Below the pieces are notes generated by a model, which was not told where the DNA came from, made no database searches, and saw only the letters and a list, made by a program, of their open reading frames with translations. From the NCBI GenBank assembly GCA_000091205.1, contig AP006501.2: 64,000 nt of DNA, one strand, 5' to 3'. The position numbers and the translations under genes are program-made. This document shows positions 6,661 through 64,000 of this stretch, piece after piece; the stretch's first letter is position 1; every line of letters starts with the position of its first letter. Origin of the DNA: Cyanidioschyzon merolae. Lineage: Eukaryota.

Positions 6661-7211
6661 GAGAACTCGCAGTCGCCGCCCAGAGACGCAACCTACAAGT
6701 TGTAAAGTTCTCTAATGGCGTTTAACGAGGCGAAGCGTTTTTTCATCGATGGACCGTTTGCACTGATGATACGAAATCCCAGAAACCCGATAGGTATCGT
6801 AAAAGGTGAGCGCGTTCATGATGTCGCAGCAGACCTTGAAATTCCAGGTGCTACCTATCATATTTTCTCTGATGGTAGCTGTGAAGCGTCCAGCGTCGAA
6901 GCAAGCGCCGGCAGTAGGTGTGCTCGTTGCTCCGAGAGACATGCGATCGCTCTATCGTCTATTTGTGGGGGAAGTACTGCTCTGAGGGTTGTGATACGCC
7001 GAAGCATACATTGAGGGTCAAGGGTCACCTAGCGGACCTCCATGGATATCTCAACGCATCTACGAGAGACCTGATGCAATCCATCAATCACACTCTATCA
7101 ACGACTTGAGCTTCGCAGTGCTTGCCTGTGGCAGGGCTACGTGTACGGAAGGTTCAGCATCTTGACCGGGCTCCGAGTTCCCAAGGAAGAACTGGTCAAG
7201 GCTCGGTGGAG

Positions 7212-8784: not shown

Positions 8785-9333
8785 CGTGCTGATCCATACT
8801 TCAGAGTTCATAAGTCTGCTGAATCGCATCGCTCAGCTTCGAGCAAATCCTCCTCGATTCGGAGTCCTTTCGGCTGGCGCAGCGTCGCAACTGCACGAAA
8901 CCTCTTCGGCCATCTGTCGTGTTGCGTTGCGCTGCGAGCGCTTCAACGGACGTGGACGAACGAACTCTAGGCCTACAGGTATACGCACCCTATAAGATAG
9001 AATAGGCGAGCACACTGCTAGTCTCTGAGAAAACGCTGCGGGCGTCAGGTTCTCAAAAACTTTTGCCAGGCGCGCAGTCTGTTTTTGCGCGATTTGCTAG
9101 AGGCAACCCACTTGGCGTTGGTATCTGCTACGTTCGACCTTAAACAGTTGGCGCGACAGCTCTCGAACAAGCACTGCAACGCGGAGGCCCTTCACCGAGC
9201 CAAGGTGCTTCCGAACCTGCTGGAGGCGCCAGGAACGGACTGGCGCTCACTGCAGCACTAGGGCGATAGGGAACGTAGCGCGCCTGGCCAAAAGCCCAAA
9301 CGACGGAGACGTTTTAGATCATTTCCAGAGTCT

Positions 9334-17950: not shown

Positions 17951-18696
17951 AAGGCTGGGAGGCGTCGAAAAGTGGGTGAATAGATATACCCCCATGGTCG
18001 TGACACATTGTTCGTTGTGCTCACCACGTATGTAGATGCTGGTGCGAGCACCGTATGCTATGGCAACAGGGTAATGCTTTCCTATGAGAACGGGCCCTGG
18101 GTCCTTTGGCTCCGATGCCGTCTCGTGCATGCCCGTATGCATCGCATCACGCTCGGCAGCGTGATCGACGAGCCCGTTTGGAGCATGTCACACGTGTGTC
18201 TCGGTGCGGTATAATTTCGGAACTCTCGAATCACCGGTAGAGTCTTTATTGTACTAGAGCTCGCTTTAGCGGCACGACAGACTCGAATGCGTGACGCGTT
18301 GGCGGCCGTCAGAGCGCCACTAAGGGCTGTGGTGGCTCGGCTATCTTGCCCCGGCACATGGACATATTATTCCGTTTCCCCATCATAATCACCAGAGCCG
18401 CATGTTCCATGTCCATCCATACTGCCTGCTCAGATTGCTGCTCAACCGACTACGCTTGTATGGCATACGCATTAGGCCATCGAAGCCAATAGGCGCTTGA
18501 GACTAGAACGCAACAGCTGCAGCCATGCATAGTTGCCTCCTCGTGCGGCTGGCGCCCGCTAATGTTTGCGTTTGCGCAGTCTCATACAAGCGCGGCCTTC
18601 GTCACGTCAACAAAATGAGTCTTATTCGGCACCAGGTGGCGTAGTCGAGCGGTCTCCATCTGAGCATGCGATCGCCACGCACACCTGCAACGACCG

Positions 18697-18912
18697 CCGC
18701 TGTATCGATGGCGAGCTTAGTTTTCCTGGTTCAATGCATCCATCCGACACCATCTAAAACAACCAGCACCGCTGTATCGATAGCGAGCTTAGTTTTCCTG
18801 GCTCAATGCATCTATCCTACACCATCTAAAGCGATCAACACCGCTGGATCGATGGCGACTTTGGATTTCCTGGCTCAATGCATCTATCCGACACCATATA
18901 TGGCGAGCAACG
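18697..18912. repeat. Minisatellite, 3 tandem copies of a ~72-bp unit
   Basis: 'caccgc(cg)ctgtatcgatggcgagcttagttttcctggytcaatgcatcyatccgacaccatctaaa...' appears three times in tandem. Confidence 0.85.
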
Positions 18913-20960: not shown

Positions 20961-23325
20961 TGCTTCTGCTGCTCCATCGTAGCCTTGCTAAGCGTCTGTG
21001 CATATGCACTCAGGGGAAAAAATTCGGCTGGCAACGTGCTCCCTCAAACGTGAATCTGCCGTCCAGAGCTTTGCTGGTCGCCTAACAGCATTAGGCAAGA
21101 ATGTTGCTTTATTTGAGAGCATATCGATGGTGAGAACCCTCGACTCGACGATAGGCTCTTCAAGATGAGGTCGTCCAGCGCAACATAGCGCCATAGCGCG
21201 CACGCCAGCGTTCGTACCCGATCAGGAGTACCTCGAAAGGCCCTGGCGCTCCCCGAAAAGAATGACCGAATAACGCGTACTAGCGCTGGTTGGCCGTATC
21301 GATCGCACGGGAGTGAACCGTTTGCGTCGTAAGCCCCTGGTGCATCGCAGTCGCGAGCCTGACGGGCACAAGTCCCTTGCGAACACCGGTGGCAGATAGT
21401 CGAGGCACCAGCTCCGTCGACGAAGGCGCTAGCAGCGAAGCAGGACCAGGGGTTTCCTGGTTAAGTTCATCGGTTCTGGACCATGAAAAAGCAAAGCAGC
21501 AGGGTAAACTGGCTATCGCGGAATCCCGCCATACTTTACTCAGTGACGGCTAGGCTACCCAACGCAACATCTTTCGCCAAGACGCGGTCTCACAACGCGG
21601 TGCGCTCTGCAAGCACATCCTGCAGGTCTCGCTCCGAGTCCGTGCTTAGACTGTTATTGCACCCAAACTTTTCAGTGACTCTATCCTTAGGTGCTGAATT
21701 TACGGCAAGCATCCCCGTGACGCAGTGCGTTGCCCCCGACCGCGACACAGGCGCGGTGGCTGGCCAGTGAACAGTCAGCTAGTACCAAAACTTCGCTGAG
21801 TACTCGACATCACCCGCGTTAGAACGAAATGGTTCGGGTCGACTCGGCGAACTCACGTGTAAACAGTAGAATGTGCATTCCTTCCTACTGTCATCAACAC
21901 CAGGCCTTGCGTACGTTTTCTCGTATTGCTTTCTTTTCCTCTCTCTTTCATTCCCGTCTTTAGATACGCCCGTTGGCCCGTCTCTCAAGCTCTGTTGTCA
22001 GGAGTCATAGGATGTTCGTGACAGCTTCCAACTGCCATTTTCATAGCTTGTGGCTGTTGTCGATGCATTGCATGCCATGCTGTACATAGCCATCTATGCT
22101 TCACTTGCAATTTTTACCTTATTGCGGACAGTGTCGGTGCTTCCCTCGATGCGGTTACACTCGACAGCTTTCAGATGCACCGATATATCCACAAAATCAT
22201 CTGTTCTGATTACCGCCCTGTGCCGCATAAGCGTTTGCTTCAGCGCTCTCTTCATAGCCTTGATGGCTGCAGAAGTTTTTTTCAATACCCTCCTCCGTTC
22301 CCGCGCCCAATACCGTAGCGTTATATCACGAAAGCGTTCCGGGCGATCACTCGTCGAGTGTTCTGTTCGCTCTGCAGGCACACGTGCGTTGTTCCATTTG
22401 AGGAAGGATTTGTGGAACGCGATGTTGATCATGATGAAATAAGTACTGTATTGGAAATCCAGAGTGGAGATCAAGGTGAGTAACTTCGATCCGTCTATGC
22501 TCGCTTCTTGTAGAGTGCTGACGAACGCTTCACAGGAGGCAATCGCTCGGATGACTTGAGTCCGAACCCAAGACCATTCGCCATGCAAACATAAAAGACG
22601 TGTGCCTCCAGAGCATATCCGGTAGAAATTATCACGCTTCTGTCAAATAATGCTTCCACAATGGTCACAAGGAGAGGAGGATTTGTGTTTAGACCGGACT
22701 CGATAATTTGATGCGAAAGATTCAGTGCTCTTCCTGTATGACATTAAGAAGAAATCTTCAAGGAACGAGGAGCAGTCTTTTTCGCATCAATCCAGCGGCG
22801 CGAATTCCAGCGCCACGAATTGCCTCAGAAACATCGAGAACATGGCTAGAGTGTGATTTGAGCAAACTCCTCGTAATGAATGATGAAGCTTGGAGGCTTG
22901 TTCGTATCAGTTGGACGATCAAATCGGTTACACTACGAATCCTTGTTCAAATACATCGCGAGTTATTTGGATCCAGGTGGCGTAATGATGTCAACGGCAA
23001 AGAGTCAAAGAAGCGACGCCCAAAAGGTGACCCAGAATCCCCAAGCTACATATAAGTGCTATAGTCCGCATTGCAGCAAGTTGAATCTCGAGACTCTACA
23101 CCTAAAAAGAGTTCGGCAAATGTCGAAATGCAAGAGCAGATCGAGTACTTCAGTGTTCCATTTCGACCCGACACGGGTGTGGAATCCATCACGCACAGCG
23201 AATGCCGCAAACCTACTCCACGCTGCACATGTAGACCGCTACCACCAACCTCAGTACGAGGCCTACGTGCGCCCTCTTTCAACGGCATATCCATAATCCG
23301 CTCAGGACGGTTTCATCCGCGCTTT

Positions 23326-24912: not shown

Positions 24913-24971
24913 TCACGCCGTTCGAAAGTCGAACGACGCGAACGGTGTACAGTAGTGGCGGCAACCGCGCC

Positions 24972-27377
24972 CTAGACGAAACGTATACAACTGACGTTCA
25001 GACGCCTTCCAGCCTTTTTGGACCGGCCACCCACTACTGCTTCCAACTTTTTCGCATATAGTTCGACTTTGAGGGGTTGCCTAACAACATTCTCTCGTGT
25101 CAACTCCGGAGGTCTCTTCTCCAGCACCGCGCATTTCCTTAGATTGATGGCGGCATTAAAATCTCGATTCACGAATTCCATCCGTTTCTTGCCATCACTG
25201 GCTGTATTCACTAATGCGAGTAATCCTCGCACTTTTGCCCTCCTTTCCATTTGCTCCCCCGTCAGCGGCCCATACTTTTTTATATCCTCAGGGCACCTCT
25301 GGCACTTTTCCATCTCGACCCTCTGAAGTGTACACCCCAGTTCAGGGTGTATATAGGACGTCCGGAACTCATCTATAGGTATCGTAACGAAACGCCGTGC
25401 ACACTCCTTGTATATTCTTGTCGTTGGAGCAGGCGTAGTTCCTTTTTGGGTCTTCCAACACCCTGCCCCATACGCTACGAAGAGCCTCTGACCTTCATCC
25501 TCCTTCAAGGCGCTCAACTGATTGGAAAAAATTCGCGAACGCCCGCTGCCTCCCACCGTATACATTCATACGCACTCGAATCCACCGAGGCTTGGTATAC
25601 TCCTCCCACAGCGCATCCCAATGAGCAACACGAACTTCCATCAATTTCAGAAAAGCCTGAAAGTCCGCATTCCGGCTCGTCACCTCACTCATAGCTTCCA
25701 GGCGATCCTTCATTCCTTCGTTCCATGTCTCAATTTTCTTCCTTGCATTCATTATACCGGATTCCCGATAATATCTTGCTCTCGAGAACCCCAAAGTTCG
25801 CATGTCTTTCTGACGTAAGCTACCGTCAATGACATCTTCCGCACGCTTGGGTGCTGCGATGGTAATGATATTCGTATTCCCAGGGTCCGCGCCAACGACA
25901 AAGTCGTTATCCTCTACCTGCTGCGTCGCTGGATCCTCCTTCTCCTTTTCTCCATGCTTCGTCACGGGCTCAGCCGAAGGCAGGACTGGACGATCTGTCT
26001 TGAACCGCCCATAGTGTACACACATGGCTACTCTATCGGATTCCATCATCCTCTTGAATACCTTTTGTTTACTCATTTTGAGACGTTTGAAATCTAAGAT
26101 ATCCTTCCAGTACGTCTCCCGGTTTTCGCCGGTGAAGTCCTCCCTGCTAGCATCAAACTCGGGATTGATATCCCTCATGATGCCGTTATGGACGCCGAAG
26201 TCGATACTCACAAAATGTGACTTGATGTTGCACAACGGAACGCCGTTGAAGCGCTTTCCCGTTAGGAAAGCCTTCCGTCTCTCCCACTCTTCATTTTTTT
26301 CCCCACTCAGCTTCATCTCTGCCTTGCGTTCGAGCTCTCGGTCCAGAAACACAAAATAGCGCAGGATGAGGCCATGATATCTTTCCTTACCGTTTTTCAA
26401 CTCTGATATCTTTTCTGCTAGATTCGCCAGCCCCAAGTCTGCGCGGCGCTCTTGAATAGCCGCACGGATTACAGAAGCTTCATTCGTGCTCTCGTTTGAC
26501 GCCTTCTTGTCGACGAATTCGATCTCATCTTCACGCTTGCGATCTTTCGTGATGCCGTCGATAATCGCCCATTTTCCATTGCGAGACAGACCCGGGTAGA
26601 GTGCAGCCACGCGCGTATCATGAAACGTTCGAGGTTCATGTTCAAATGGTTCTTCAGATTCGTGAGGTACTTCATAGCCCCATAGTCGTAAATATCCCGG
26701 TCACCCTTGTATCGAGTACCCTCGAAGCAGAATTTCGCGAAGTTTTCGTGGAGGACGTGCACCCGCTCATTTTCCCTCCATGTTTCCTCTGTACCAAGCA
26801 TCAGCTGACGAACAAAGGTCTTATCGAAAAACTCGTCCGGAATCTCGACCATTTCCACGTGCGTCACGTCGCGATACATCTCCCTCACCAAATGCATCAG
26901 TCCTGATGACGCCTTGACAATACTCTTGGAGTACGAATCGACACGGTTCCTAATGGCCTCTCGCAACTTTTGTTTGTGAGGATCCTTGTTATGTTTAAGA
27001 AGACAGGTTTTCACCACCATCTCGTCGTACTGTCTTCTTTCTCGCAGCCTTGGACGTGCGGCCTCCTGCCTTTGCTTCTTCTGCCCTTCCTGTTCTTCTT
27101 CGCCCCGCCATGTTTTTCGTGTTTCTCCACCAACCGGCGACACAGGGCCCCAGGATCCTCCGCTTCCACTTCCATAACTTTCCATTTTTAATTTTTTATA
27201 ACGCTCTCTGAACGCTTCTGCTCCAAACAGCGAAAAATCACTTGAATACACTTGCTTGAGTGTTGAAACACAATTGAACTGAATAATATACGTTGCTACG
27301 ACTTTAATGAAAATAAAATTTGCCGGGTAGAACAACACGCTACAGATTAGGATTCCATTCCTCTTCAACGGCGACAT
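24972..27377 (-). CDS. Fanzor-like (eukaryotic TnpB/OMEGA family) RNA-guided nuclease gene, near-intact. It is split over three overlapping ORF segments (26469..27377, 25495..26610, 24972..25565)
   Basis: The N-terminal segment has a K/R/E-rich NLS-like region. The middle segment carries RuvC-I ('[17 protein letters not shown]'). The third segment carries RuvC-II ('[16 protein letters not shown]'), a zinc finger ('[14 protein letters not shown]') and RuvC-III ('[15 protein letters not shown]'). The order RuvC-I, RuvC-II, ZnF, RuvC-III and the 'RDxNAAxN' motif are characteristic of TnpB/Fanzor. The frame changes between segments are consistent with either tiny introns or inactivating frameshifts. 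Confidence 0.8.
25518..25563 (-). other. Candidate 46-nt GT-AG intron joining Fanzor ORF segments 2 and 3
   Basis: On the minus strand the sequence 'gtatacggtgggaggcagcgggcgttcgcgaattttttccaatcag' begins with GT and ends with AG. Removing it joins '...RVRMN' in frame to '[19 protein letters not shown]...'. A length of 46 is not a multiple of 3, which explains the frame switch. Confidence 0.35.
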
Positions 27378-27794
27378 GCGCGTCGTGTCTCGTGACCACC
27401 TGATCCGGAGGTGCGCGTACCGACCGCGCTATACAAACGAAGAGCAAAAATGAATCATTAAATAGCGACGAGGTAACAATGTCTTTCTTCCTCTACGAGA
27501 AACGTAAAAAGGATGAAAGTTTTTCGTATTGTGGAAAAGTTTACCTTACAGGCGGAGGGTCCTGCGAGCTGGACGATTCTGCTAGGCTGGTGCTCGGTGT
27601 GCCTCTAAAGTGGCGGATGCTGTAGCGAGACCTGCGCAGCTCGTCCGCAACGCAGTTTTTTGGGACTAGGGGCAACAAAGCCGCGTCTGGGCGTCGCCCT
27701 GTTGCGGTGGTCTCCTAGTATATCGTTTCGCGCTGCCGCAGAAAGTACGTCCGTCAGCGCAGCTTGCAGACTCTCAGAACTATTATGTACTCCG

Positions 27795-28010
27795 AGACGA
27801 TGCCAGGTGCACCACGCCTCGAGCCGACGCCCTCAGTAGTATGGCAAAGCCGTTCTGTCTCCGTGCAGCATCCGCACCAGCGGTAGGCGCTACATCTGGT
27901 GCTGACGCCAGGCACTTGCTGCACGATAGAATGTACGAGACAACCTGTATATCCTCGAGGAAGTATAAGAAATGAAGCTTGAAGGTAAGTGCATCATAGT
28001 GGACGCTTTC
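27795..28010 (+). repeat. ~200-bp interspersed repeat, copy 1 (family also at 34738-34860 and, inverted, at 46005-46235)
   Basis: Nucleotide alignment by eye: 'cctcgagccgacgccctcagtagtatggcaaagccgttctgtctccgtgcagc...' matches the reverse complement of 46005-46235 and the forward strand of 34745-34860. Confidence 0.7.
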
Positions 28011-28335
28011 CCGAAAGCAAATATCCATCCCGCAATCTGGGATCCATGGTCAATATAAACGTCTTGTCATCGAAATATGCCTCCCGACTGGGGGACGCGT
28101 CAGCGTCGCAGCGCATCGCTGCTGGCGACCCGACGGCTGGACACGTTTCCTCTGCGTATCTGTGCCGCACGGCGCTGCAGTGCCTGGAGACTCCAAGAAG
28201 TGGGGTGTGCGTTTTGTTTGACGGATCGGTAGTGGTTGGGTGTGCTACAGTTCCACGAAGCAAACCGTTCTGCTTAGTTGTGTTCTCTCTAGAGTTCTTT
28301 CCGCGGAGGCCTGAGACTTAGCGAATTTATTTGTT

Positions 28336-28773
28336 ATGAGCAAGAAAGGCGGAGACGTCCCCGAGTACGTGTACGAGCCATACCAAGGTGACGGGTACGC
28401 ACCTCCTCCTCCGGCAGCGAACTCTAGTAGCGTGTATAGGTACCAGACAGGTACGAATGCTGTGCCGCCGCCGCCGCCTCCGACGCAGAACGGCGTCGCT
28501 TATGCTTACAGTCCTGCGGGGGCGCCGCCGCCACCGCCACCCCCAAACTTTTCTTATGCCTACAGCGAGGCCCTGCCGGACGGCACCTCCCGACACTATT
28601 ATTACGCCCAGCGGACCTACTCGAACGCGCATGGGCGGTATCAGAACACGAACTTTGACCAGAACGACCAGCTTGCGCGGGGGTGTCTCTACGCCTGCTG
28701 CGAAGGTATGGCGGCTGGTCTGTGTGCGGCGCTGACCTTCGAGTGTTGCCTCGGTTTGTGCGGTTTCTGGTAA
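28336..28773 (+). CDS. Pro-rich protein with a C-terminal cysteine-rich transmembrane (CYSTM) module
   Basis: ATG at 28336. PPPPP/Y-rich N-terminal region. The C-terminal 'GCLYACCEGMAAGLCAALTFECCLGLCGFW' is typical of the CYSTM tail-anchor. Confidence 0.6.
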   Translation: MSKKGGDVPEYVYEPYQGDGYAPPPPAANSSSVYRYQTGTNAVPPPPPPTQNGVAYAYSPAGAPPPPPPPNFSYAYSEALPDGTSRHYYYAQRTYSNAHGRYQNTNFDQNDQLARGCLYACCEGMAAGLCAALTFECCLGLCGFW

Positions 28774-30307
28774 GCAATTGGTCAGGGGTGTGCCATGCGT
28801 CTCGTGGCTCGATCAATAGACAGCTCACACCATCATGGACGATGTGGCCGAACTTGGAGTATCATATGGTTTGCGCCCCGTAGCGGGCAGCTCTGTGCTG
28901 CGTAGACAGGTCTCTCCGAACCGTTGCATATGTCATCCAGGATTTTGCATGTTATATATGAAGAACCCCTCCTGCAGATCGAGGAAAATCACCGTCTTCG
29001 GAACGCGAGTAGTAACCGGTCTGTTCCAGCTGTATGCGGATTGTCAGCCCGAGGTTTACTGGCAATAAATCTGGTGCTTTTCGGAAAATAGATTGAGCAT
29101 CTCGAAGGGTACATCGTAAATGCTGTATTTTCTGCATAAAGTTACATCAAAAACATGCCAAGTATCAGAGGCATAGCTCACGCCCCGGACCGTCTCAGTC
29201 TTAGCGGGATCTGCACCGGACCCTATCAGAAAGTTACTACGCACACTGGTGTATGCGTTGTCCGAAATTCGCCAACTCTACTTCCATAGTGCCGTACGGT
29301 GTAGAGGCGCGAAGCGTCCAATGAACCTGTGTGCGACAAGTCCAGCTCGGCCAATTTTCTGTGGCGCTGGGTACGTATCCACGCTTGTCGTACGTCGAAG
29401 GGCGGCTTTGCGATGCTTTCATTGATGTCGGCCCGAGGGATCGAGCACTCTGCCCCGTGCGACGTCATACTGAAGAGGGATCGTGTGGCTGGACGCATAG
29501 CGTTTCCGTCTTTGACATCATCACTCGTGTGACAGTTTTCAATAAACTCGAGACAGCTGATCTTCAGCATGCCTGGTTACTAGGACGCACCAAGCAACAC
29601 GTATGCCGTACCATTAAGAGACTGCCTTACAAAGCAGCAAGAAGCAGAAGCAAAACGCAGCCATACAGAAGGGTGGCGCTAGCGCTGGCAGTCCACAACA
29701 AACTTGGATGCTTCCAGCGAACTCAAACGGGTTACGCCTCCATTCTTCTCCGCGCACACAAGCAGCTAGCAGGGACAGTACGAAAGCTCCCGTTCCACGC
29801 GCGAAATAGACTACAAAAGGTTCTGCTTTATGATTATGATACTTGTTCTTGCCTTTATATGGAGCCGGCCGCTGCCGAATAAAAACTATCTACCGACAAG
29901 AGAACAGACTCTGCCAAGCTAATTCCAACTTCGGATGCACGTACTTGCCAACTGCGTTCAAGGGTTTTTCTGAAGACTGCACGTTGCGACTGCGGAGCCC
30001 GGCACCGCATCAGTACGCCAACTAGCGTTTTCATGGTGCAGAATCGATGAATATAGCTAGGCCAATGTCAAACTTCAATGCAACTGGTCCACGTACCGAC
30101 TTTGGGCGAAGAATCTAAAGCCTCGGCCTCATCCAATGTCATCAACGCCAGCATTTACGTATTTTTGCTGCGACTGGTCCCATTTTCTCCTTTTTTCTGG
30201 ATTACGATACGCTGGTCCCTCCTTTTGCTCAAGTTCCATTGTCAGTAGCCGAAAGACCTAGATGACGGCATTATATTTCCTTTTTCACCATTTTTGGAAG
30301 TTGCCCA

Positions 30308-31422
30308 TACAATTCATGCACAGGCGGCGGTTGCGACATGCGCGTCGTTTGCGATAAGGGAATCGTCTTGGCATACGGTCGCGCTGTACCCGCTGCAGGG
30401 GTGACACTTGAGACTGGTCAGGCGTTCCCTCAGATGCACACGAGCTCCCCGTCATCCTCCTCTTCCTCCAAGGGCCGCCCCACGGTACCTGAACGCTCCC
30501 CTCACCACCCGGTACATGCCCATGACGGGTGCAGAGTGCCCCCATGGGTGCCCGACTCCGTTGCGCGCTGTGCGCTACGTTTGCGTGCTTGTTCTGGGCG
30601 ATCCCCTAGGAGCGGACGTCGTACGCTCGACGTGCAAGCGCACCATGTTCCATTCGACAGAGCCTGTATGGAATGCAACGTTGTCCGTGGTGTAACGAGT
30701 GGCCGACGGAAAACCCAGGCTGGAGATTTGTTCGAGAAATTTGGATTTATGTTCACTCATTTCGTGCTAAGCTGCGACGCGTCCTCTACAGGAAGCGATC
30801 GCTACGATCGCTCAAGTTCGAGTCCATAACCGTATTCCGTGCAAAGAGAACAGACAGGAGCCTCTAAGGCATATTCCGTGGGACTTGTGATGCTTCATTC
30901 GAATGGAGCTTCCCTGATGTCCACAATAGGGGACGATTTGTCTTCGGAACGGAACCGATCATCGGACCTGAATCGGGCGGTGGTCTTTCAGCATGAGCTT
31001 GTGGGCACGTCGCCAAGGGACGACGCGGGCTACTACGTGCTCTCGTCGATCCATCGGCGCAAGTCGCTGTGCCCAACGAGCATCCTTGCAACAAAATAAG
31101 CGAAACCCCGGGAAGTCGGTGATTTGAGCACACTCCTGGCTGTCCAATTTGACAAGTAGAGGCTTGAACGTAAGCGTTGGATAATGGCATGTATTGATTT
31201 ACGAAAACTTGCTCTAAAGCGTCCTGAAAATGGCGATTTCGGTAACGTAACAAATTCCGGCGGCAGAGCGTCGTGTTTGCAAGTCCCAGAGGAAAACAAC
31301 GCAACCTTAAGCTACGGTGTAATCCTTACGCCCTCACTGCTTGAATTCGAGTGTGCAGGCTGTACACCTGGGAAGGGTTCGCAAAAAATCGCTAGCCAGG
31401 TACAGGGCGGGCGTTCAGTCTT
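30308..31422 (+). repeat. Inverted repeat arm 1 (~1.1 kb), partner at 33616-34727
   Basis: Identical ORF translations occur on opposite strands (30338..30829(+) = 34207..34746(-); 30864..31304(-) = 33753..34172(+)). Both boundaries were read by nucleotide comparison. The arms are near-identical apart from a few indels and SNPs. Confidence 0.9.
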
Positions 31423-32227
31423 GTACTTTAATCTGATACAGGCGCAGCATCGCAGCCGGGCGTGCTGTCGCCCTGATATGAACGCTCCTATACAGCCATC
31501 TGCTCGCGCTAGTTGCAGATTCCTCATCGTCGGGGAAGGTGCTCTTCTTCCAGGGAGCGGTCGATGCCTGCTGCAAATTCACTACGCCACACAGTTCCTC
31601 AAACGAAGACCAGCCATCCCTTACGCCCTCAATAATCGGGTTACTGACCCTACTCGCCAATGTGACCCTGAGCGGGCGCCATTCTGAGCGAGACCCGAGC
31701 GCTGCGTCTTCCGATCATGCGTGGGACAAACTCTCCCCACAGTTGTCCGTCGAGTGCCTGCCTGGGGCGCCACGATAACAATCGCTCGTGATGGCCCCAC
31801 CTCGGGATCGATGCTGCGCGTCATGGCACGCGTTTTACGTAGTGGCTGCCCCGGCGGCATCCCTGGGCTCACAGGATGACGCATGCACCCGCATGCACAA
31901 AGTCAGGCTCTGCACTAGAGGCTGAGATATCCGTATCCTCGCGTGGCCGGTTCAAAATACACGTATGTGCGCAGCGGTTACATGCGAGTGCCGCTTCGTG
32001 CATGAAGCAGCACCATCGCAAGCCTCCGGTGAGCCGCATTTCAGGACGTTTAAGAATCCGCTCTCGATGATTCCGGCAACCGGCTGGTGTACGAATCCTG
32101 GAGTTATTGCTGGAGAGGTTGCGGATGCTGTGGGCAAAGATGCCATGAACAGCGAAACTGCTGCCAAATTCGCGTACCGCGCATCGATGCTCTAGCGCTT
32201 CCTTAAACGACCACTGTTTTCTGCCGA

Positions 32228-33370
32228 TCAAGCCCGGCAGGAAGCGCGAATCTGTTCCGCGCTTTTGCGGCCGTAGTGGCGGATCCACGGATGCATCGCA
32301 GAGAGAACCACCAAAAGCGCCTCTTCGGTTCGGATGGTGCGACTCCCCTGATGCGGGCAAGCATTTACGTAGGCGTCGAACAACTTTGCGACGTCCGGAC
32401 TGCCATAGCTTGCTTCGAGTCCGTGGATTCCACCAAATGCAACGAGAAGCTTGCGGAAACCCCCTGGAGGAATGAATGACGCCCTCCGAGCACTCGCCCC
32501 ATCGATTTCAGTTTCAGCCGCCGTGCTGTCCGTAGCTCGTTCGGCAGAGCTACCCCAGAGGGTAGCGAAGAGGTCGGTGCCCCGCTCGCTGGTACCTATT
32601 TTCACATCAGCGCCGCTCGTGGACAGAGCCTGTACTAAGTTAGCAGCCAGTCGCACTTTGTAGCCCCAGTAAAGCCCAAGCCTTTCGCGGGGCTCATCGC
32701 GAGCGACCATCACGGCCCGAGTCCAAGTCCAGCAGCCTTGCATATGTAAAGACGGATGCGAATCCCGTTTACGCTTACGGTTCGAGCCTTGTTCCGCAAC
32801 ATAGTGTCCACTCCTCTCTAGTTTCTCGAATCGCACTGTAACGCGCTGTCCGACGGGCAACGGCATGTCAGTGTCGACAGCTACAGGAGCGTCCCAGCCG
32901 ACGTGAACGTATCGACTTCGGTCTGACGTTGCGCCAGTGTCTGGAGCGGGTACCACGACCCCCTCGCGGTACGGAGTTCCCTCGTGCCGCCGCGGATGGT
33001 GCGGTGTATCCAGCGGGTTTAACAGTCCAACGTACTGTAGTTCAGGCGTATGCGGAAAAAGCGCCTGTCGCAGGTACTGAGGGCACTCGGCATACTGCAA
33101 AAGTCTCGCTAGATGGGTATCAAAAGCCGTCGACGACGGCGATGAAACGGTGCCCGCGATAGTTGCACGGACACGCTCAGCGAAGATAATGACCTCATCT
33201 ACCTCAAAGATTGCAAGTGCTCTCGCGATCTGCCCCGCAAGGTACGTCTGTAACGCCGGGGTCTGCGCGTTAGCCAGAACGGATCCAGGCAGCGCTACTG
33301 CAAGTGTCCACGAGCGCCCTTTCTGCTCGCTCTTGGTGCAGTTGGAAGCAAGGGCAGTTTCCTGGTGCAT
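32228..33370 (-). CDS. SPOUT-domain putative RNA methyltransferase, SPOUT1/C9orf114 (DUF171) family
   Basis: The track ORF begins with GTG at 33385; the first ATG is at 33370. 'TLAVALPGSVLANAQTPALQTYLAGQIARALAIFEVDEVIIF' closely matches the conserved N-terminus of C9orf114/SPOUT1. The C-terminal 'LLVAFGGIHGLE...' trefoil-knot region is present. Confidence 0.75.
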   Translation of the reverse strand: MHQETALASNCTKSEQKGRSWTLAVALPGSVLANAQTPALQTYLAGQIARALAIFEVDEVIIFAERVRATIAGTVSSPSSTAFDTHLARLLQYAECPQYLRQALFPHTPELQYVGLLNPLDTPHHPRRHEGTPYREGVVVPAPDTGATSDRSRYVHVGWDAPVAVDTDMPLPVGQRVTVRFEKLERSGHYVAEQGSNRKRKRDSHPSLHMQGCWTWTRAVMVARDEPRERLGLYWGYKVRLAANLVQALSTSGADVKIGTSERGTDLFATLWGSSAERATDSTAAETEIDGASARRASFIPPGGFRKLLVAFGGIHGLEASYGSPDVAKLFDAYVNACPHQGSRTIRTEEALLVVLSAMHPWIRHYGRKSAEQIRASCRA

Positions 33371-33615
33371 GCGTAGAAGGTGCACAGCGCCCTTTGTTTC
33401 GGTTCAGTTATGGGCCAATTAGAAACCGTCTGAGCGCCCTCTGCTCCAGTCGATCTGAGCAACGCTGGGTCAGACAAAAATGTTTCTAAGCGTTGCAAAT
33501 GGCGTCGATGATCCAGTGCGCTGCGCGTCAGCGCGTGCTGAAGTGCTCGTTATTTGAGGACGAAAGCCATTCTGTGACTAGAGACATCTAAAGCCGTGGA
33601 ATAATAGAATAAAAG

Positions 33616-34727
33616 ACTGAACGCCCGCCCTGTACCTGGCTAGCGATTTTTTGCGAACCCTTCCCAGGTGTACAGCCTGCACACTCGAATTCAAGCAGTG
33701 AGGGCGTAAGGATTACACCGTAGCTTAAGGTTGCGTTGTTTTCCTCTGGGACTTGCAAACACGACGCTCTGCCGCCGGAATTTGTTACGTTACCGAAATC
33801 GCCATTTTTCAGGACGCTTTAGAGCAAGTTTTCGTAAATCAATACATGCCATTATCCAACGCTTACGTTCAAGCCTCTACTTGTCAAATTGGACAGCCAG
33901 GAGTGTGCTCAAATCACCGACTTCCCGGGGTTTCGCTTATTTTGTTGCAAGGATGCTCGTTGGGCACAGCGACTTGCGCCGATGGATCGACGAGAACACG
34001 TAGTAGCCCGCGTCGTCCCTTGGCGACGTGCCCACAAGCTCATGCTGAAAGACCACCGCCCGATTCAGGTCCGATGATCGGTTCCGTTCCGAAGACAAAT
34101 CGTCCCCTATTGTGGACATCAGGGAAGCTCCATTCGAATGAAGCATCACAAGTCCCACGGAATATGCCTTAGAGGCTCCTGTCTGTTCTCTTTGCACGGA
34201 ATACGGTTATGGACTCGAACTTGAGCGATCGTAGCGATCGCTTCCTGTAGAGGACGCGTCGCAGCTTAGCACGAAATGAGTGAACATAAATCCAAATTTC
34301 TCGAACAAATCTCCAGCCTGGGTTTTCCGTCGGCCACTCGTTACACCACGGACAACGTTGCATTCCATACAGGCTCTGTCGAATGGAACATGGTGCGCTT
34401 GCACGTCGAGCGTACGACGTCCGCTCCTAGGGGATCGCCCAGAACAAGCTCGCAAACGTAGCGCACAGCGCGCAACGGAGTCGGGCACCCATGGGGGCAC
34501 TCTGCACCCGTCATGGGCATGTACCGGGTGGTGAGGGGAGCGTTCAGGTACCGTGGGGCGGCCCTTGGAGGAAGAGGAGGATGACGAGGAGCTCGTGTGC
34601 ATCTGAGGGAACGCCTGACCAGTCTCAAGTGTCACCCCTGCAGCGGGTACAGCGCGACCGTATGCCAAGACGATTCCCTTATCGCAAACGACGCGCATGT
34701 CGCAACCGCCGCCTGTGCATGAATTGT
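33616..34727 (-). repeat. Inverted repeat arm 2
   Basis: Reverse complement of 30308-31422 (see arm 1). Confidence 0.9.
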
Positions 34728-34737
34728 GTGGACAGCA

Positions 34738-34860
34738 GCCGAACACCTCAAGCTGACGCCCTCAGTGATATGGCAAAGCCGTTCTGTGTCTGTCCTGCGA
34801 TCGCACCGGCGCTTTAGGAGCCATCGCTGACGCTCAAGGCGGGCTCGGCGCACGAAAGAA
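34738..34860 (+). repeat. ~200-bp interspersed repeat, copy 2 (partial), abutting the outer end of IR arm 2
   Basis: 'gacgccctcagtgatatggcaaagccgttctgtgtctgtcctgcgatcgcaccggcgct...' aligns with 27820-27930. Confidence 0.6.
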
Positions 34861-35417
34861 CTGGAAAACTGCACGGTGTCTTCGAAGGAAGCCCCGATGA
34901 GTGCAACTTGGAAGGAGGCGTAGCGATTGATGCTCCATCGTATGCTGGTATCAAGCGCACAATCGGGGATTCCCGGTCTGGGCAAACCCTCGATCAGAAA
35001 ACAGCTGGAGGCGGCGATATCGAGGACTGCAACGCTACGATCAATATCATTCAACTGCGTACAACCGCGTTGGACAGACAGGAGAGACCGGTATATGTAA
35101 AGCTGAAGATATGAAAGAGAAAAATGATCAGTAACAAGAAACTTGCAAAGGATGGTGTTGATGATATTGGAATAGGCCTAAACTTAAGAGTCTTTGCCCA
35201 AGTTCAGTGAGTGAATCCGTAATACTCTCATGTGACATGGGTGCGAAGAAGATCGGCCAACGTGCATCAACTGCCCGATGCGCGCCAAAATACGCGCGCG
35301 GACGCTGCTCGAACGCGCCTCGGTCGGCAATTTCCCGCGGCAAGCTTCTTCCCGCCTGGTACTCTCTGCCCTGCGTTGGCGTGTACCCAATATTCACAGA
35401 AGAGCCTTTGTGAAAAC

Positions 35418-36206
35418 ATGTTCGAGGCCCGCTTTCCGGAAGCGCTGCTTTTAAAGAAAATACTGGAGGCTATCAAGGACCTAGTCCAGGATGCCAACTT
35501 CGAGTGCACTGAGAGTGGCATCACCCTCCAGGCTATGGACAACGCTCACGTATCGCTCGTCACACTGCTTCTGCGTGGCGAGGGTTTCGACCTCTACCGA
35601 GTCGACAAACCTGAATCGCTTGGTATTAACTTGAACTCTATGTCGAAGATCATGCGTTGTGCGGCGAACAATGACACTGTCACTGTGGACAAACTCGAAG
35701 GTGCTGACACGGTGCGCTTTCTCTTCGAATCGCCGAACGCAGATCGCATGAGCGAGTTCCATCTCAAGTTGATGGATATTGACTCGGAAACGCTTGAGAT
35801 CCCCGAATCCATGTATCACGCTGAGATAGAGTTGCCCAGCGCGGAACTGCGTCGGATCGTGAGTGATCTCTCCACAATGGGCGACTCCGTGCGCATTTCT
35901 GTAAGCAAGGAGGGCGTCCGCTTTACGGTTCGTGGTGACGAAGGGAGTGGAAGCGTGATTCTGCGCCAAAGTACCGGTGTGGATAAGCCGGAGGAGGCGA
36001 TTCATATTGTAATGAACGAACCGGTGGAGCAGAGCTTTGCACTAAAGTACTTGAACTTGTTCTGCAAGGCGGCGCCTTTGAGTGCGCGCGCACAGATCAA
36101 ACTGAGTAAGGATGCTCCACTCTTGGTCAACTTCTCCATGAACAATATCGGATATTTGGCTTACTATTTGGCCCCGAAGATAGGAGATGAAGATATTGAA
36201 GAGTGA
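35418..36206 (+). CDS. PCNA: Proliferating cell nuclear antigen (PCNA)
   Basis: 262 aa from the ATG at 35418 (the track ORF starts upstream at a GTG). 'MFEARFPEALLLKKILEAIKDLVQDANFECTESGITLQAMDNAHVSLVTLLLRGEGFDLYR...LAPKIGDEDIEE' is collinear with eukaryotic PCNA end to end. Confidence 0.95.
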   Translation: MFEARFPEALLLKKILEAIKDLVQDANFECTESGITLQAMDNAHVSLVTLLLRGEGFDLYRVDKPESLGINLNSMSKIMRCAANNDTVTVDKLEGADTVRFLFESPNADRMSEFHLKLMDIDSETLEIPESMYHAEIELPSAELRRIVSDLSTMGDSVRISVSKEGVRFTVRGDEGSGSVILRQSTGVDKPEEAIHIVMNEPVEQSFALKYLNLFCKAAPLSARAQIKLSKDAPLLVNFSMNNIGYLAYYLAPKIGDEDIEE

Positions 36207-38826: not shown

Positions 38827-41010
38827 GAGCGTCTCTAACATAGTCTGCTACCTCTATTATGTTCCACCGCAGGTGCGAGTCCTTTACGGCCTCTTCGCGG
38901 TTTACCGCAGATTCATTCGAAGCGCGTTCATCTTGAAGAAATACAGTATTCAAGGGGAAGGTATGCACGTAAAAGCCGAGGATCCTGGAGGACCGTCATC
39001 CCTGGCTGCCCGAAGAAAACGCAAAAAATCCTCTCATCGCCGATCATCGAGCGAAGACAAGCAAGTTACGAGGAAAAAAACAGAATAGGGGACACAGACG
39101 ATAAAAGGTGTTTGCTAGACGTGACAATGACGAGACTGTTGTGGCGCAGGGGGCGCGAGTACTTGGAATTCTTGCAATGTTGAGCTCCACCAGCGTCAAT
39201 GCACGCAAGGAGTTCGTGAATCGAGACGTGAACGCCGCCATCTATACCAAACGATGTGCGGTGCTGAAGAGGATACCCGAGGCGCTGGCGCGAGCCCGTC
39301 TTGTGAGGCAGCCTCTCAGGCTCGAGGTATACATGCAGAATCTGGAACTGATAGCAGGCGGCCGGTCAGACGAGAGAGTGAGGCGTCTGCGAGTGGGTGT
39401 CTATGTACCTATCATGGTCGTGAACCGCTGCTCGTTGTACCGACTATAAACTTAGAGCAGTGGATTCTGGAACAACTTTTCGAGGGCGCGCTTTTGTTTC
39501 GATTGCTTTTCTCGCAGGTGTTCAACCAAGCAATTGTGTACTTTAGGTTCGGGGGAAAGTCGCGAAACGTTTTGAGCTTTTTATGGCTTGCGTGCGCAAA
39601 CCGCCGTCATTCTGAACTGAAGGCAACGCAATCCGATAAAGTGCATGAATCAGCTGTCTCGTAGTGCCTGTTCCTAGAACTGCGCTCCAAAACGAGAACG
39701 TACCAGACGCCACCTACAAGCCTTGCTCGTTTTCAATCCGTTCCACTCCACAGTTCCGTTCAGAAAAAGCAGAGAAAAAACCACACGATATGAAGATTCT
39801 GTACCGTCGATACCGACGGTAATGAAGAGGCACGGGTGGACGACGCAAAAGCACGTTGCTCCGTGAGACCGTCGTACGTTGAACGAGACGCGCACACTCT
39901 CATACGCACACCCGCGATCGATTACATCATGAAAAGCGAGCGGTTACTACGGGACGGACGAGTGCTCGTCGCTCTCAATGAGACTTCATTCAGAGAAGCG
40001 TGCAGACCTGGACACGGGCGCCCTAACAGGGATCATCGATGTTCGCACACCAGGAACACGCGAGTATTCCGAAAAGATCAGCAGTAGCAGCAGCATGGAA
40101 ATCGTGTGGTCGCCTACTTTTCGCCAAACGGGCGGGATTGCCCAACAGCTCATTCGCGGTCGAGGCAGTCCCCAGGATGCAGAGCTGAAGTGGATGCCCT
40201 GCACGCTTGCTCCGGGGTGCGCCTTAGCGACCATGCGGCACATGCGGACGATATTGGGGCAGGGGCACAGCGAACCGCGCTGGGGCCGCCAACGGTTTCG
40301 GTTGTATAGGCCGAACTGGCGTGCAATCGCCTACGTGGTCAGTCAGTTGGACAAAGCATCGACAGACGTGTCGCATCGTTTGGTGGAGGACGAAGGCGCT
40401 CGACGTATTGCTGCGCGCAAAGCACGTACCCGTGTTCGTTGCGCGAGAGCGCACACCGAGTGCAGGAATCGATGCGGTACGTGCTCCCGTTGATGAGTTC
40501 AAAACGACGTATACGCATCACAAGCATGTGTGCACGCCGAAACGGGTAGAGAAGACGAATGTGAAACGGAACCTGATGCACGACGTGGTGTGCGGGAAGC
40601 GGGGCATCGTCAGGTAGCGACGAGGGTGCAGGTGAGCGGCTGGCAACGGCGTGATTCCCCGAGCAGCCACGCGTGCAAGCACATTCTGCGCGGAGACTTG
40701 GGCGTCTCAACGAGCACCCGGAAGCGTCTCGTGCTTCCGGAGCGTCCATCGGTTTTGCATGAAGCGAGCGCTCGAGGTAGTAATCGGTTCGACCTTCGCG
40801 GCGCCATGGTACTGGAACGCAGAAGGCTTGCGATGAAAAGAATCAGTGGCGGCGAGAGAGGGCTCTGGATTCCCGACTGGAGCTATGCACTGGTACGATA
40901 TGGATCAGCAATCGAGTGAGACTCGTGTACTCTCATATATACGCTGTGATTTGGATTCCCTGGCAGTTGGAGAAAGATCGTGCTGATATACTATCCGATT
41001 TTACTGCGGA
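38827..41010 (+). mobile_element. Copy B of the ~2.2-kb repeated non-autonomous element: a Fanzor 3' fragment (38835-39460) plus the 1.5-kb core (39461-41010)
   Basis: Near-identical to 56635-58824 inverted; the core is identical to 7264-8784. The ends were read from where the three copies diverge: left 'ccgagcgtctctaaca', right '...gatcgtgctgatatactatccgattttactgcggatat'. No target-site duplication is seen. Confidence 0.8.
39108..39449 (+). pseudogene. Fanzor/TnpB C-terminal fragment (RuvC-III) inside copy B
   Basis: 'ARVLGILAMLSSTSVNARKEFVNRDVNAAIYTKRCAVLKR...VRQPLRLEVYMQNLELIAGGRS' aligns with the intact copy's '[41 protein letters not shown]...[22 protein letters not shown]'. Confidence 0.75.
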
Positions 41011-41354
41011 TATGAAGCGAGATGCAACACAGTGTTTTGATATAAATCCGCGCATTCAAACCTATAGACTTTCAGATGAACTTTGACACTCGCAACACAA
41101 ATCTCGCTCGTTGGAGCTGCTCGACTCGCGGCGTCTAGCCTTCTCGAAACTGGAATGCGACTGCCGGACAGTCACAGTTGCAAAACGTTCGCTGCGAAAT
41201 CGGTCATTGGGACAGTATTTCCAACCATCCACGGCTATTTCATGTGCAAAAGCTCTCCAAGCCGTAGAATTTGCAGTGTTTTCTTTTTTATAGGCATGCA
41301 CATGAGCTTTCTTATTTTGACGCTCCAAAGAACTAGTGTCTGATTCGGCGATCG

Positions 41355-45908: not shown

Positions 45909-48900
45909 TTTTCTTTAATCACTGACGAAATGTTTACCTAAGCCAGCGTTCTCCGATTATGCGCATTTTTCGTTTCTTAATTTTTTTGTGTTTTTTGTCA
46001 GTGTGAGGTGGGATATCCATCAACCCCCTACCTCCATGTTACATTACCTATACTTCGTCTCGGATATTCTGGTCGTTTCATGCGTCCTATCGGGTGCCGA
46101 GCCTGCCGAAAGCGACAGCAATAGCGCCTATAGCGCCGGTGCAGTCGCTGCACGGAGACAGAACGGCGTTGCCGTACCACAAAGAGCGTCTGCTCGAGGT
46201 GTGCTTCACCCGACGTAGAATCGGGTCTCGTCGTCAGTTTGTGCTCGGATAGTCTGCAAATGCAGGCTTGCCTTCGCTGCAATACACGCTGTAGAAACTT
46301 GGCTGTTAGGATATATCCTGAGAGCCGCCTCTCTCCTTCGTGATCATGCATGGAATGCGTTGTTGTCGGTTGGCAATGCGGGTTTGTGCTTGACACCCAT
46401 CACAGTGGGTAGGCACAAAGAGCACTAAACCCGTGTGCTCATCCGATTCGTTGGACCTGCTGCCTAGAAGGTAGAGTTTGAGTTTATTGGCCACTCATGA
46501 GCGCTGAGGCTCCGTTAGCGCACCATCAGTTGCCAGTGCTACACTCAGAGTGAGTGTCCGGCCTTCGACAATCACGGTGATGTCCAGCTGCTGCTGTCCT
46601 CCAAGGAACTCGCTGCGCTCCTGCTTCGAGCGCGGGCACTGTAAGCTTAAATATGTCAGCGTCTCGGGGATTTCGTCTCGATAGCAGGTACAGTGTGACT
46701 CCCAGTGCGGTTCCAGTGTTCCCGTACGGAGTAGAGCCGGTGCTGGTAGCCAGAAGCCACCAACGCGGATTTTGGCGAGCCACTGGGTACCGCGAGCAAG
46801 TCCCGGGAATTCCAGCGCCTCCCACCAGTACTTGCTTGTGTATGCTAGGTTGTAGTTCCGGTATAGAGTCAAGCCGGCGTTACTGGCGCGACTGGTACCG
46901 TGTCTACCTTCCCATATTGGCGTTCGGACCGTTCGCTAGAGGCGGCGGGAGCCTTGTACATTTCTGGGGAACGATTGGAGCGCATTTTCGCGTAAGAGGC
47001 GCTTTAGCCAAATCTGCGCTGATTTCATCCAAGTTTTCTTGCGGTGCGTTGGGGTCTGCATGAAAATCCGACTCAAAGGGGTGCGCATAGTGGGCCCTTT
47101 GGCCCGTATACATGCCCAGCAGCCTGCTGCTATCGCTTCTATCGAGGCTATTTGGAGTTCAAGTCCGAGTGCCAGCGGGTTGGTTGCTCTGCGCTGCATT
47201 GAGCATCCAACAACAACAACGAGTCGCATTGCCCTGTTGGCAGCTGTCTGCAGACGCGAGGCATTTGTGTGCTTCATGCCGCACCATTCAGCACCCCAGG
47301 TCGAAGGCTGGATGATACACATCCTTAGTGCCCTCGTACGGATTGCTAAGGGGATAGAGGGGTCGGATGGGAATGGGCGTGCGATCGCTGTACGTCTATG
47401 CATCTTGGCGATCATCTCGTCGACGTGAGCCTTTTCGTCGAGCGTCGGCGTGAGACAGACCCCCAGGTAGCGATATTTTTCCACGATCGGAATTTCCTGA
47501 TTCTGCAACCGCCATGAGCGATTGCGAATGCTCTGTGAGTCTCCATGGATGACCATGGCGCCGCACTTCAATGCTCCTATGTTCATAACCCAGCGATCGG
47601 CCCAGGCGCTGACTTGTTGCATGCTAGCCGCAAGCGTTTCCGGGGCGGGTGCCAACAGCACGACGTCGTCGGCAAGTAGAAGGCCTGCGAGGCGGTTTCT
47701 ATGTGAGGGCTCCTCATCGGGCATCTCCACAGTCTATCCACGGCACCTCAAGTCCGTATTGTCTGCGGTTGTTCAGCAGATCGTTGATGAAGATGTTGAA
47801 AAGGCGCGGGGATGCGCGGTCGCCCTGTCGCAGTCCACGGCGGATTCTTATCGAAGGGGTTCTTGAGCAGTCGCCCAGTCGGGTGCACATCCACGAGTCT
47901 GCATAGAGCGCACGGAAGAACGCTAAGCACTTTCCGGAGACTCCGGCACGTTCCATCTTCAGAAATGGAGCCTCGTGCGGGACCGTTTCAAAGGCCTTTT
48001 GAAAGTCGATGAAGCATACGTAAGTTGGTTGTTGGCAGCTAATGGAGCGACGTTGCACCACTTCAATGAAGGTCAGGTCATGGCTCATGTACTCCTCGCG
48101 GCTCCGGAATCCAGCCTGTTCTGGGGCGAGGAATTTGCGTTCCTCGAGGCCCCTCTGAGTCCGGTTCGTGAGGTTGGCGCAAAGTAGCTTCATGATTTAC
48201 GGGATGAGGCGCATAGTCCGGTAGATATTCATGTCTGTGGGGTTCGGAGTCCTTTTTGAGGATCGGTACGACCTCGGCAGTCCTCCATACATCTGGGATG
48301 TACGCTTCTTCGAACATGCGTTGGATGAGCTCCAGAAGGCGCTTGCCTAAGATTGTGTCAGGTTCATCTGGTATCGATAGTGTCCCTGTTGTCTCGTCTT
48401 TTGGGGTCGCCAGTTTCATCCACTCCGTAGGGATACCGTCAAAGCCAGGTGTTTTGCGGTTGCATGACCTTAAGAGGGTCCGGACAGATTCAGGCCAGAA
48501 GATTGGGTCGTTCCATACCGGTACCGGGTCGAGGCGCGGTAGTTCTGCAGCATATTGGTGCCAATAGATTGGGTCTTGGCAGTGCCCAGTTGCGTCTTCA
48601 TGCAGCTCTGTCCCGTGGTCTATCCAGGCCTCATTCACTGAGGCACTCTCCGTCCTCAGCGCTTCCTTATAAACAATTGGTGTGAGCCCCAGGCACTTTC
48701 TTGGTGGGTCCAGTCTCGATCGAATGGAGCGCCATGTCTCATCTTCGTTGGTGCTCTCCAGCATAGATTTCGCCAGGGAGGCGATTCTGCGATTTCGATC
48801 CTCCTGTTTGTCTTCTCTGGAAAGTTTCTTCTTTCTTTTGATAGCTTCCTCATGTTGTGCCTGTAGCGCCGTTAGGACTGCCTTCGCTTCCTTGTCTCCG

Positions 48901-58824: not shown

Positions 58825-58829
58825 CGGGA

Positions 58830-63836: not shown

Positions 63837-64000
63837 TTTACGAACTTATTTGTACACTCAGTTTTCGCATAAGCACGCACGCTGGGCAACACAGAATTCA
63901 GAATGAAATGGAAAGGGTCGACTTTATTAACTCGGTCGTCTACGCCAAAGTTTAGGCTTTAGCCCTCTCGTATGAGCGCCAGCCTTCACAGGATACGTCT

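Follow-up and report, generated by a model that had tools for sequence, protein, structure and literature searches.

A reversed SPOUT1 gene between near-identical inverted arms in Cyanidioschyzon merolae: probable conversion and crossover between two copies of a transposon-like repeat

The locus described here lies in a stretch of 64,000 nucleotides (nt) from the red alga Cyanidioschyzon merolae (contig AP006501.2 of GenBank assembly GCA_000091205.1), in the following called the window. In this window the gene of a SPOUT1/C9orf114-type RNA methyltransferase is enclosed by a long inverted repeat and stands reversed relative to its orthologues in four related genomes. A repeat search and gapped alignment place the left arm at 30305–31422 (plus strand) and the right arm at 33613–34731 (minus strand), with 99.6 % identity over 1,118 nt. 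The arms differ by four mismatches (30308/34728, 30449/34587, 30586/34450 and 31040/33996) and by a single 1-nt indel in a homopolymer (AAAA at 31227 vs. AAAAA at 33809); the two adjoining inverted pairs returned by the repeat search represent one arm with this indel. A match of 1.1 kb at such identity is beyond chance. The near-identity of the arms, reported in a preliminary description of this DNA at 30308–31422 and 33616–34727, could be confirmed, with coordinates that were at most 4 nt off. Between the arms lies a spacer of 2,190 nt (31423–33612). The DNA to the left of the left arm, which is unique, is referred to as X1 and the DNA to the right of the right arm as X2; S1 denotes the part of the spacer adjoining the left arm and S2 the part adjoining the right arm.

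The spacer contains the complete SPOUT1 gene (32228–33370, minus strand), as had been proposed. The intact reading frame of 380 amino acids matches the Pfam family PF02598 (Methyltrn_RNA_3) with an E-value of 2.8e-82 over profile positions 1–301 of 302, and the protein is identical to C. merolae 10D XP_005538773.1 in all 380 positions. Orthologues carry the source name 28S rRNA (uridine-N3)-methyltransferase. S1 (31423–32227) is located on the 3′ side of the gene and its first ~17 nt match the 3′ end of the repeat family described below (TCTGATACA), whereas S2 (33371–33612) comprises the 242 nt upstream of the start codon. The conserved right neighbour, identified by Pfam and synteny, is the PCNA gene (35418–36206, plus strand). 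Its product is identical to XP_005538774.1 (262/262) and shares 98 % identity with the protein of Cyanidiococcus yangmingshanensis and 87 % with that of Cyanidium caldarium. On the left, the conserved neighbour is an open reading frame (ORF) for a proline- and cysteine-rich protein of 145 amino acids (28336–28773, plus strand), which is recognized by tblastx in the loci L011 and L013. The exact protein is present in 113 blocks of the sequence collection.

Gene order was compared with the loci of the closest SPOUT1 relatives, L011/L012 (64 % amino-acid identity of SPOUT1) and L013 (62 %), and with two annotated genomes, Cyanidiococcus yangmingshanensis (L034, GCA_013995675.1) and Cyanidium caldarium (L035, GCA_026184775.1). 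In the relatives the order is RING protein, ATP sulfurylase (+), Metallopep (−), the small ORF (+), SPOUT1 (+), PCNA (+), eIF3 (−) and Tim17-like (+). According to tblastx the window is collinear with all four of them gene by gene, and SPOUT1, which still lies between the 145-aa ORF and PCNA as in the ancestral order, is the only gene that is reversed. SPOUT1 and PCNA thus diverge in the window, whereas they lie in tandem on the same strand in L011/L012, L013, L034 and L035. An inverted repeat around SPOUT1 was found in none of the four related genomes. All four relatives share the co-orientation with PCNA and the absence of flanking repeats. Both the reversal of the gene and the repeat around it are derived traits in the lineage of C. 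merolae. As to the small left neighbour, a homologue of its Cys-rich C-terminus is situated on the plus strand of C. caldarium L035 at 7680–7752, inside an annotated gene on the minus strand (259 aa, 7718–8497); this record may be mis-annotated.

Inverted repeats are often mis-assembled, and the placement of the spacer is inconsistent among short-read contigs, so that a collapsed or mis-joined repeat had to be considered. To this end we used contigs of independent JGI, ENA and Logan assemblies, which are derived from metagenomes and represent an organism 99.6–99.8 % identical to the window. The four junctions X1/arm, arm/S1, S2/arm and arm/X2 all recur there: dozens of contigs hold the spacer together with both inner junctions, and others hold the X1/arm or the arm/X2 junction. 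The structure is present in wild populations. Further, the arms differ at five positions in the window, which shows that they were assembled separately, and the genes of the window match those of C. merolae 10D, whose genome is a finished reference, exactly. The suspicion of an assembly artefact, raised as a possible objection in the preliminary description, was therefore not borne out, and we regard such an origin as highly improbable. Two small differences concern the arms themselves. The AAAA at 31227 occurs in the left arm of the window only; the right arm reads AAAAA, and so do all environmental contigs at either end of the spacer. The difference is explained either by a private deletion in 10D or by a homopolymer error of the reference. 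At positions 31416/33619 most environmental contigs carry T in the arm at S2 and C in the arm at S1, whereas both are C in 10D and in L001. With a variable site 7–10 nt away from the inner boundary, the tract of identity thus has a polymorphic inner end.

The ORFs of the arms gave no Pfam match, and scans of the region revealed no Rfam (E≤1) or tRNA match. A weak similarity crossing the outer boundary of the left arm prompted a search with nhmmer, by which a family of repeats was found that plain blastn of the arm against the window had missed. Homology to 21880–23186 (E 2e-84) and to 54761–56099 (E 1e-70) extends over the left arm and beyond it on both sides, by ~250 nt into X1 and by ~17 nt into S1. 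Each arm is thus the internal part of one copy of a non-coding interspersed family of ~1.4 kb, represented here by a profile hidden Markov model (HMM) of 1,460 positions, and the window holds at least five copies. Searches with this HMM gave the full-length copies A (21728–23198) and B (54665–56099), both on the plus strand. Copy C (30052–31441, plus strand) begins in the left flank, of which it takes up the final ~250 nt, runs through the left arm and ends ~17 nt into the spacer; the HMM matches it at 30062–31463 with positions 74–1460. Of copy E (63882–64000, plus strand) the 5′ end is contained at the end of the window (family HMM E 4e-4, supported by alignment).

The copy on the right side, D, is found in two parts. 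Its inner part, matched by the HMM on the minus strand at 34747–33605 (positions 301–1427), includes the right arm, and an outer segment follows at 35252–35000 on the same strand (HMM positions 63–314, E 4.8e-21; nhmmer against copy C, E 1.8e-11), which ends ~165 nt upstream of the PCNA start codon. As these two ranges of HMM positions continue each other across an insertion of ~260 nt (34741–35000, plus strand), the right side is one collinear full-length copy that is interrupted at about HMM position 305–315. The insertion is flanked by a possible target duplication of 8–9 nt (ACAGCAGC / ACAGCTGG). Between arm and insertion, 16 nt (34732–34747, minus strand) still match the family but not copy C, to which they are identical in 10 of 16 positions; they are a remnant of the old, unconverted copy D. 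The insertion contains a copy of a ~150-bp interspersed repeat (34739–34889), which marks the outer limit of the right arm. An interspersed repeat had been noted at the outer arm end before; this applies to the right arm, but not to the left one. Copies B and D both start 160–210 nt upstream of a divergent gene, which is a flavin adenine dinucleotide (FAD) monooxygenase gene (52909–54456) for B and PCNA for D.

The proposal that the arms lack recognizable coding content extends to the whole family. Among its copies tblastx scores are alike in all frames, amino-acid identity is lower than nucleotide identity and substitutions display no 3-base periodicity. The copies in the 64 kb, five in number, have common ends with degenerate terminal inverted repeats of ~22 nt. 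In copy A these are located at 21811–21832 and 23158–23179 (17/22 complementary), and the 5′ end of the family consensus, CACCCGCGTCAGA..AAATGG, matches the reverse complement of the 3′ end. In the loci L011, L012, L013, L034 and L035 no match to the family HMM was obtained at E≤1. The intergenic gap that holds copy A measures 2.5 kb in the window and 0.04–1.1 kb in the relatives, where it is 1.4–2.5 kb shorter. Judged from these sequence features, the family most likely represents a non-autonomous transposon with terminal inverted repeats, and its mobility is likely. The family occurs at a density of about one copy per 13 kb of the window. If this is typical, it would make up a sizeable share of a genome that is usually described as repeat-poor.

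With arms from a probable transposon family bracketing a complete gene, a foldback or composite transposon comes to mind, whose long terminal inverted repeats captured SPOUT1 and carried it to this site, as had been suggested in the preliminary description. The gene, however, occupies its ancestral syntenic position in five lineages, and a single C. merolae protein, with no second SPOUT1, was found among the best 120 PF02598 homologues. Target-site duplications flank the unit neither at 30052/35252 nor at 30305/34731, copies A, B and E stand alone and unpaired in the window, and in the contigs searched the outer end of the arm was found beside X1 or X2 only, i.e. in two contexts. A gene-capturing element is therefore very unlikely.

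The relation of copies C and D to each other changes abruptly along their length. Over the outer ~250 nt, identity amounts to 69–72 % in each of the six pairs formed by A, B, C and D, the pair C/D with 72.2 % being no exception. In the inner ~1.1 kb all pairs again show 69–71.5 % identity except C and D with 99.6 %; the left arm (30305–31422) accordingly is 69–71 % identical to A and B, and the right arm, corresponding to HMM positions ~301–1427, forms the other half of this homogenised tract. The jump coincides with the insertion of ~260 nt by which copy D is interrupted: outward the tract ends 8–16 nt from this insertion, inward ~17–35 nt from the 3′ ends of the elements. Outside the 1,118 nt, C and D are thus as old and diverged as any other pair of the family. 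High identity inside the tract and ordinary divergence outside, with the limit at a heterology, point towards gene conversion between the copies rather than a fresh duplication of unique DNA. Since the arms are internal parts of full-length copies whose outer parts are 72 % identical, the repeats, as read from their sequences, predate the inversion. The earlier idea of a recent palindromic segmental duplication consequently holds insofar as the near-identity is recent, but it lies over two old family copies.

Further copies of the arm had been proposed as a point to be checked. The window holds copies A and B with ~70 % identity and the 5′ end of copy E, but blastn detected no further copy of high identity there. 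A single scan of the metagenomes for a 30-mer of the outer arm end gave five contigs, all with X1 or X2 as flank, which is weak evidence on copy number. To tell which of the arms is the original, homology to them was also sought by blastn and tblastx in the intergenic DNA of the relatives, with nothing significant.

A single recent rearrangement of unique DNA, either an inversion with staggered breaks or a template switch during replication that duplicated 1.1 kb in inverted orientation at the breakpoint, could also lead to near-identical arms. The arrangement X1–arm–inverted spacer–inverted arm–X2 is exactly what one staggered and one blunt break are expected to produce, and the identity of the arms is 99.6 %. 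If the event is undone under this model, the intergenic distances come to ~2.9 kb on the upstream and ~1.5 kb on the downstream side of SPOUT1, similar to those in L011 and L034. The staggered-break duplication was favoured at first and was demoted when the outer segment of copy D was found. With this segment in place, the duplicate would have had to arrive in the correct register and orientation, no more than 270 nt away from an older, diverged piece of the same family; the segment covers HMM positions 63–314 and the arm starts at ~301–317, a coincidence unexpected from a random breakpoint. The haplotypes common to both arm positions, described in the following, need a later exchange anyway. 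We thus consider a single rearrangement unlikely.

The outermost 110 nt of the arm include four variable sites (30354, 30358, 30412 and 30415), near enough to the unique flank for single reads or k-mers to link them to it. The haplotype AGGT was found in the X1 arm of most contigs and in both arms of 10D. TGCA occurred in the X2 arm of L024 and L026 and in the X1 arm of L019, and the recombinant haplotypes TGGT (L033) and AACT (L032) were observed at the X2 arm. The start points of the MEGAHIT contigs L041 and L042 imply further combinations. For the sites 30354 and 30412, 58 nt apart, all four combinations of alleles occur. Two-way transfer from arm to arm among strains that are less than 0.4 % diverged is the simplest explanation for these metagenome contigs, and the haplotypes common to both arm positions in wild samples suggest that exchange between the arms continues. 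In 10D each arm carries about two private changes, a density equal to that of the spacer; conversion is thus not fast enough to erase differences at the level of strains.

The same data bear on a variant of the conversion model with a different tempo. Possibly a double-strand break or gap in copy D, next to the insertion, was repaired once and recently from the 70 %-identical copy C, whereby 1.1 kb was overwritten and a crossover inverted the spacer. This would agree with a tract boundary 8–16 nt from the insertion, with outer segments of C and D that are as diverged as any other family pair, and with the spacer-like density of about two private changes per 10D arm, which speaks against very fast homogenisation. 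On the other hand, homeologous repair is an inefficient process at 70 % identity, and the two-way movement of haplotypes among strains <0.4 % diverged indicates repeated exchange, to which the haplotype data give the better fit. A one-time repair consequently seems rather improbable.

We consider it likely that the arms were homogenised by gene conversion between the two copies and that the spacer was inverted by a crossover. One copy of the element would have inserted upstream of SPOUT1 and a second one, oppositely oriented, between this gene and PCNA, with the 3′ ends of C and D facing SPOUT1. While still alike, the copies would have begun to exchange sequence. The insertion of ~260 nt may then have cut off the outer segment of copy D from this exchange; the outer segment would have decayed like the other copies, and the inner 1.1 kb would have stayed homogenised. 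At least one exchange, located inside the identical tract, would have been reciprocal, inverting the 2.19-kb spacer and turning SPOUT1 away from PCNA. Conversion and crossover would be the mechanisms at work in this scheme.

Several points weigh against this explanation. Copies of 70 % identity cannot recombine, which means that C and D either were kept alike since they were young or went through one homeologous repair event. Gene conversion is read from the pattern of identity, without an observed conversion event. Consistent target-site duplications were not found around the family copies, which are ~30 % diverged. Among the assemblies that resolve the arms, none carries the un-inverted isomer in this species. 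The haplotypes of the metagenomes may mix strains, though the linked sites are no more than 130 nt from the flank.

In either orientation the spacer adjoins the same arm sequence, and SPOUT1 keeps at least 1.36 kb of identical upstream DNA, consisting of S2 and the arm. With the same upstream DNA both ways, the flip should be neutral in cis. This also bears on the idea of a programmed invertible switch, in which site-specific inversion turns SPOUT1 or a neighbour on and off. Its appeal lies in an inverted repeat that flanks a gene of species-dependent orientation. Inversion cannot uncouple SPOUT1 from its promoter, however, if at least 1.36 kb upstream is the same both ways; moreover, the arms are 1.1 kb of decayed repeat instead of short recombination sites, and no Pfam recombinase was detected among the ORFs of 29–36.5 kb or the neighbouring large ORFs. 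A switch of this kind is hardly credible.

Whether both orientations exist at present was approached with the metagenome contigs. L014, L015 and L023 run from X1 through the arm into S2 and SPOUT1, opposite to the window, and L026 runs from X2 through the arm into S2, as in the window. In the samples of L014, L015, L023 and L026 the arms do not differ over their inner ~1 kb. JGI contigs always enter the spacer at S2, whatever the flank, and MEGAHIT contigs go from the common arm into S1. Since the end at which the spacer is entered depends on the assembler, short-read contigs are uninformative on orientation, and reading the orientation from contigs that cross the arms was rejected, the path being the choice of the assembler. 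The contigs would at most be compatible with a coexistence of both isomers. The view of the repeat as a recombination substrate able to invert the gene is hence supported by the reversal relative to four relatives without the repeat, but a present-day flip-flop is unreadable from these contigs. As a tentative and less probable extension, the locus might be in live flip-flop, with both SPOUT1 orientations coexisting in natural and perhaps also clonal populations of C. merolae and the arms kept identical by frequent conversion while the sister copies decayed to 70 %. If true, this would be a nuclear, recombinase-free counterpart of the isomerisation of plastid inverted repeats in a minimal eukaryotic genome, and the locus would serve as a natural reporter for mitotic homologous recombination in this model alga. 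The arbitrary placement of inverted-repeat spacers by short-read contigs is a warning in its own right.

A second repeat concerns the joining of contigs around the locus. A sequence of 1.5–2 kb is present in three copies of 99 % identity (7260–8793, 39074–41013 and 56640–58828). L024 (ENA) and L031 (JGI) join the window segment 16227→7260 directly to 40987→34541 through the direct-repeat pair. The resulting junction ...39444-repeat-8794... is absent from the window, and L025 keeps the order of the window. This junction represents either a misjoin at the repeat or a structural variant, for example a tandem duplication of the ~31-kb segment with the SPOUT1 locus or a circle formed by it.

Inversion by non-allelic homologous recombination between inverted repeats is known from human FLNA-EMD, with inverted repeats of 11 kb, from yeast Ty elements and from bacterial insertion sequences (IS). 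As in these cases, near-identical inverted repeats derived from dispersed elements bracket unique DNA in non-ancestral orientation and no dedicated recombinase is involved; the present example differs in being tiny, with arms of 1.1 kb and a one-gene spacer of 2.2 kb in a very compact algal genome of 16 Mb. Gene conversion from arm to arm is known from the palindromes of the human Y chromosome and from plastid inverted repeats. Similar to both, the arms with 99.6 % identity are much closer to each other than expected from their age, to which the ~70 % identity of the unconverted parts of these copies corresponds; identity ends sharply at the heterology, and variants are common to both arms. 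In contrast to the gene-bearing amplicons of the Y palindromes, the arms here are non-coding remnants of a presumed transposon, and conversion is deduced from their sequence. For plastid inverted repeats an equimolar flip-flop is known, whereas the inversion is read here against outgroups. The staggered-break model was described for Drosophila inversions, in which, as here, the inverted segment is bounded by an inverted duplicate of the breakpoint sequence. The arms of this locus, however, continue outward into older, diverged parts of family copies, so that the repeats predate the rearrangement. With foldback or composite transposons carrying passenger genes the locus shares the long inverted arms around a gene, but the gene has not moved, and neither other copies of the unit nor a target-site duplication were found.

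We thus assign the locus to a known class, inversion by homologous recombination between inverted transposon-derived repeats with conversion of the arms, of which it would be a new example. Such inversions are well documented in bacteria, yeast, flies and humans, and no general concept is changed by the locus. A description of it was not found in the literature in a search that was not exhaustive. Its value lies in a one-gene inversion that is documented at single-base resolution in a model red alga with a very compact reference genome. The locus also indicates that decayed repeat copies can stay locally identical through recombination, with an unrelated insertion limiting the converted tract. 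C. merolae is valued for its efficient homologous recombination, and the locus could be used as a ready-made assay of recombination between inverted repeats in this organism.

Apart from the copy inside the insertion, the ~150-bp interspersed repeat is found at 1–120, 27810–27960 and 46057–46206 (minus strand) and perhaps at 14943–15034, the copies being 77–81 % identical. Short and weak matches to it occur in L011 at 1345–1383 and 6721–6759.

To the left of the 145-aa ORF, a segment of ~3.4 kb (24913–28335) is absent from the syntenic loci of the relatives. It contains two overlapping ORFs on the minus strand in different frames, 25495–26610 and 26469–27377, which together amount to ~670 amino acids. 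Neither Pfam nor PDB gave a sequence match for them, so that the label Fanzor, under which they had been listed, is neither confirmed nor refuted. One family of Fanzor1 elements of ~3 kb, CMe-1A, was reported for C. merolae (PMC3627910), which makes the label plausible. The ORFs at 25495–27377 may be a candidate for this element, apparently with a frameshift. A 16-mer common to the arms and the 5′ region of these ORFs had been pointed out as a link. The sequence, GCGACATGCGCGTCGT, is indeed present at 27371–27386 and in both arms, but the match does not extend, nor is it conserved in the other copies of the family. With ~0.03 matches of this kind expected by chance between arm and window, the shared 16-mer is probably a coincidence. 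Finally, three tandem copies of a 72-nt unit, 78–89 % identical, are located at 18688–18903.

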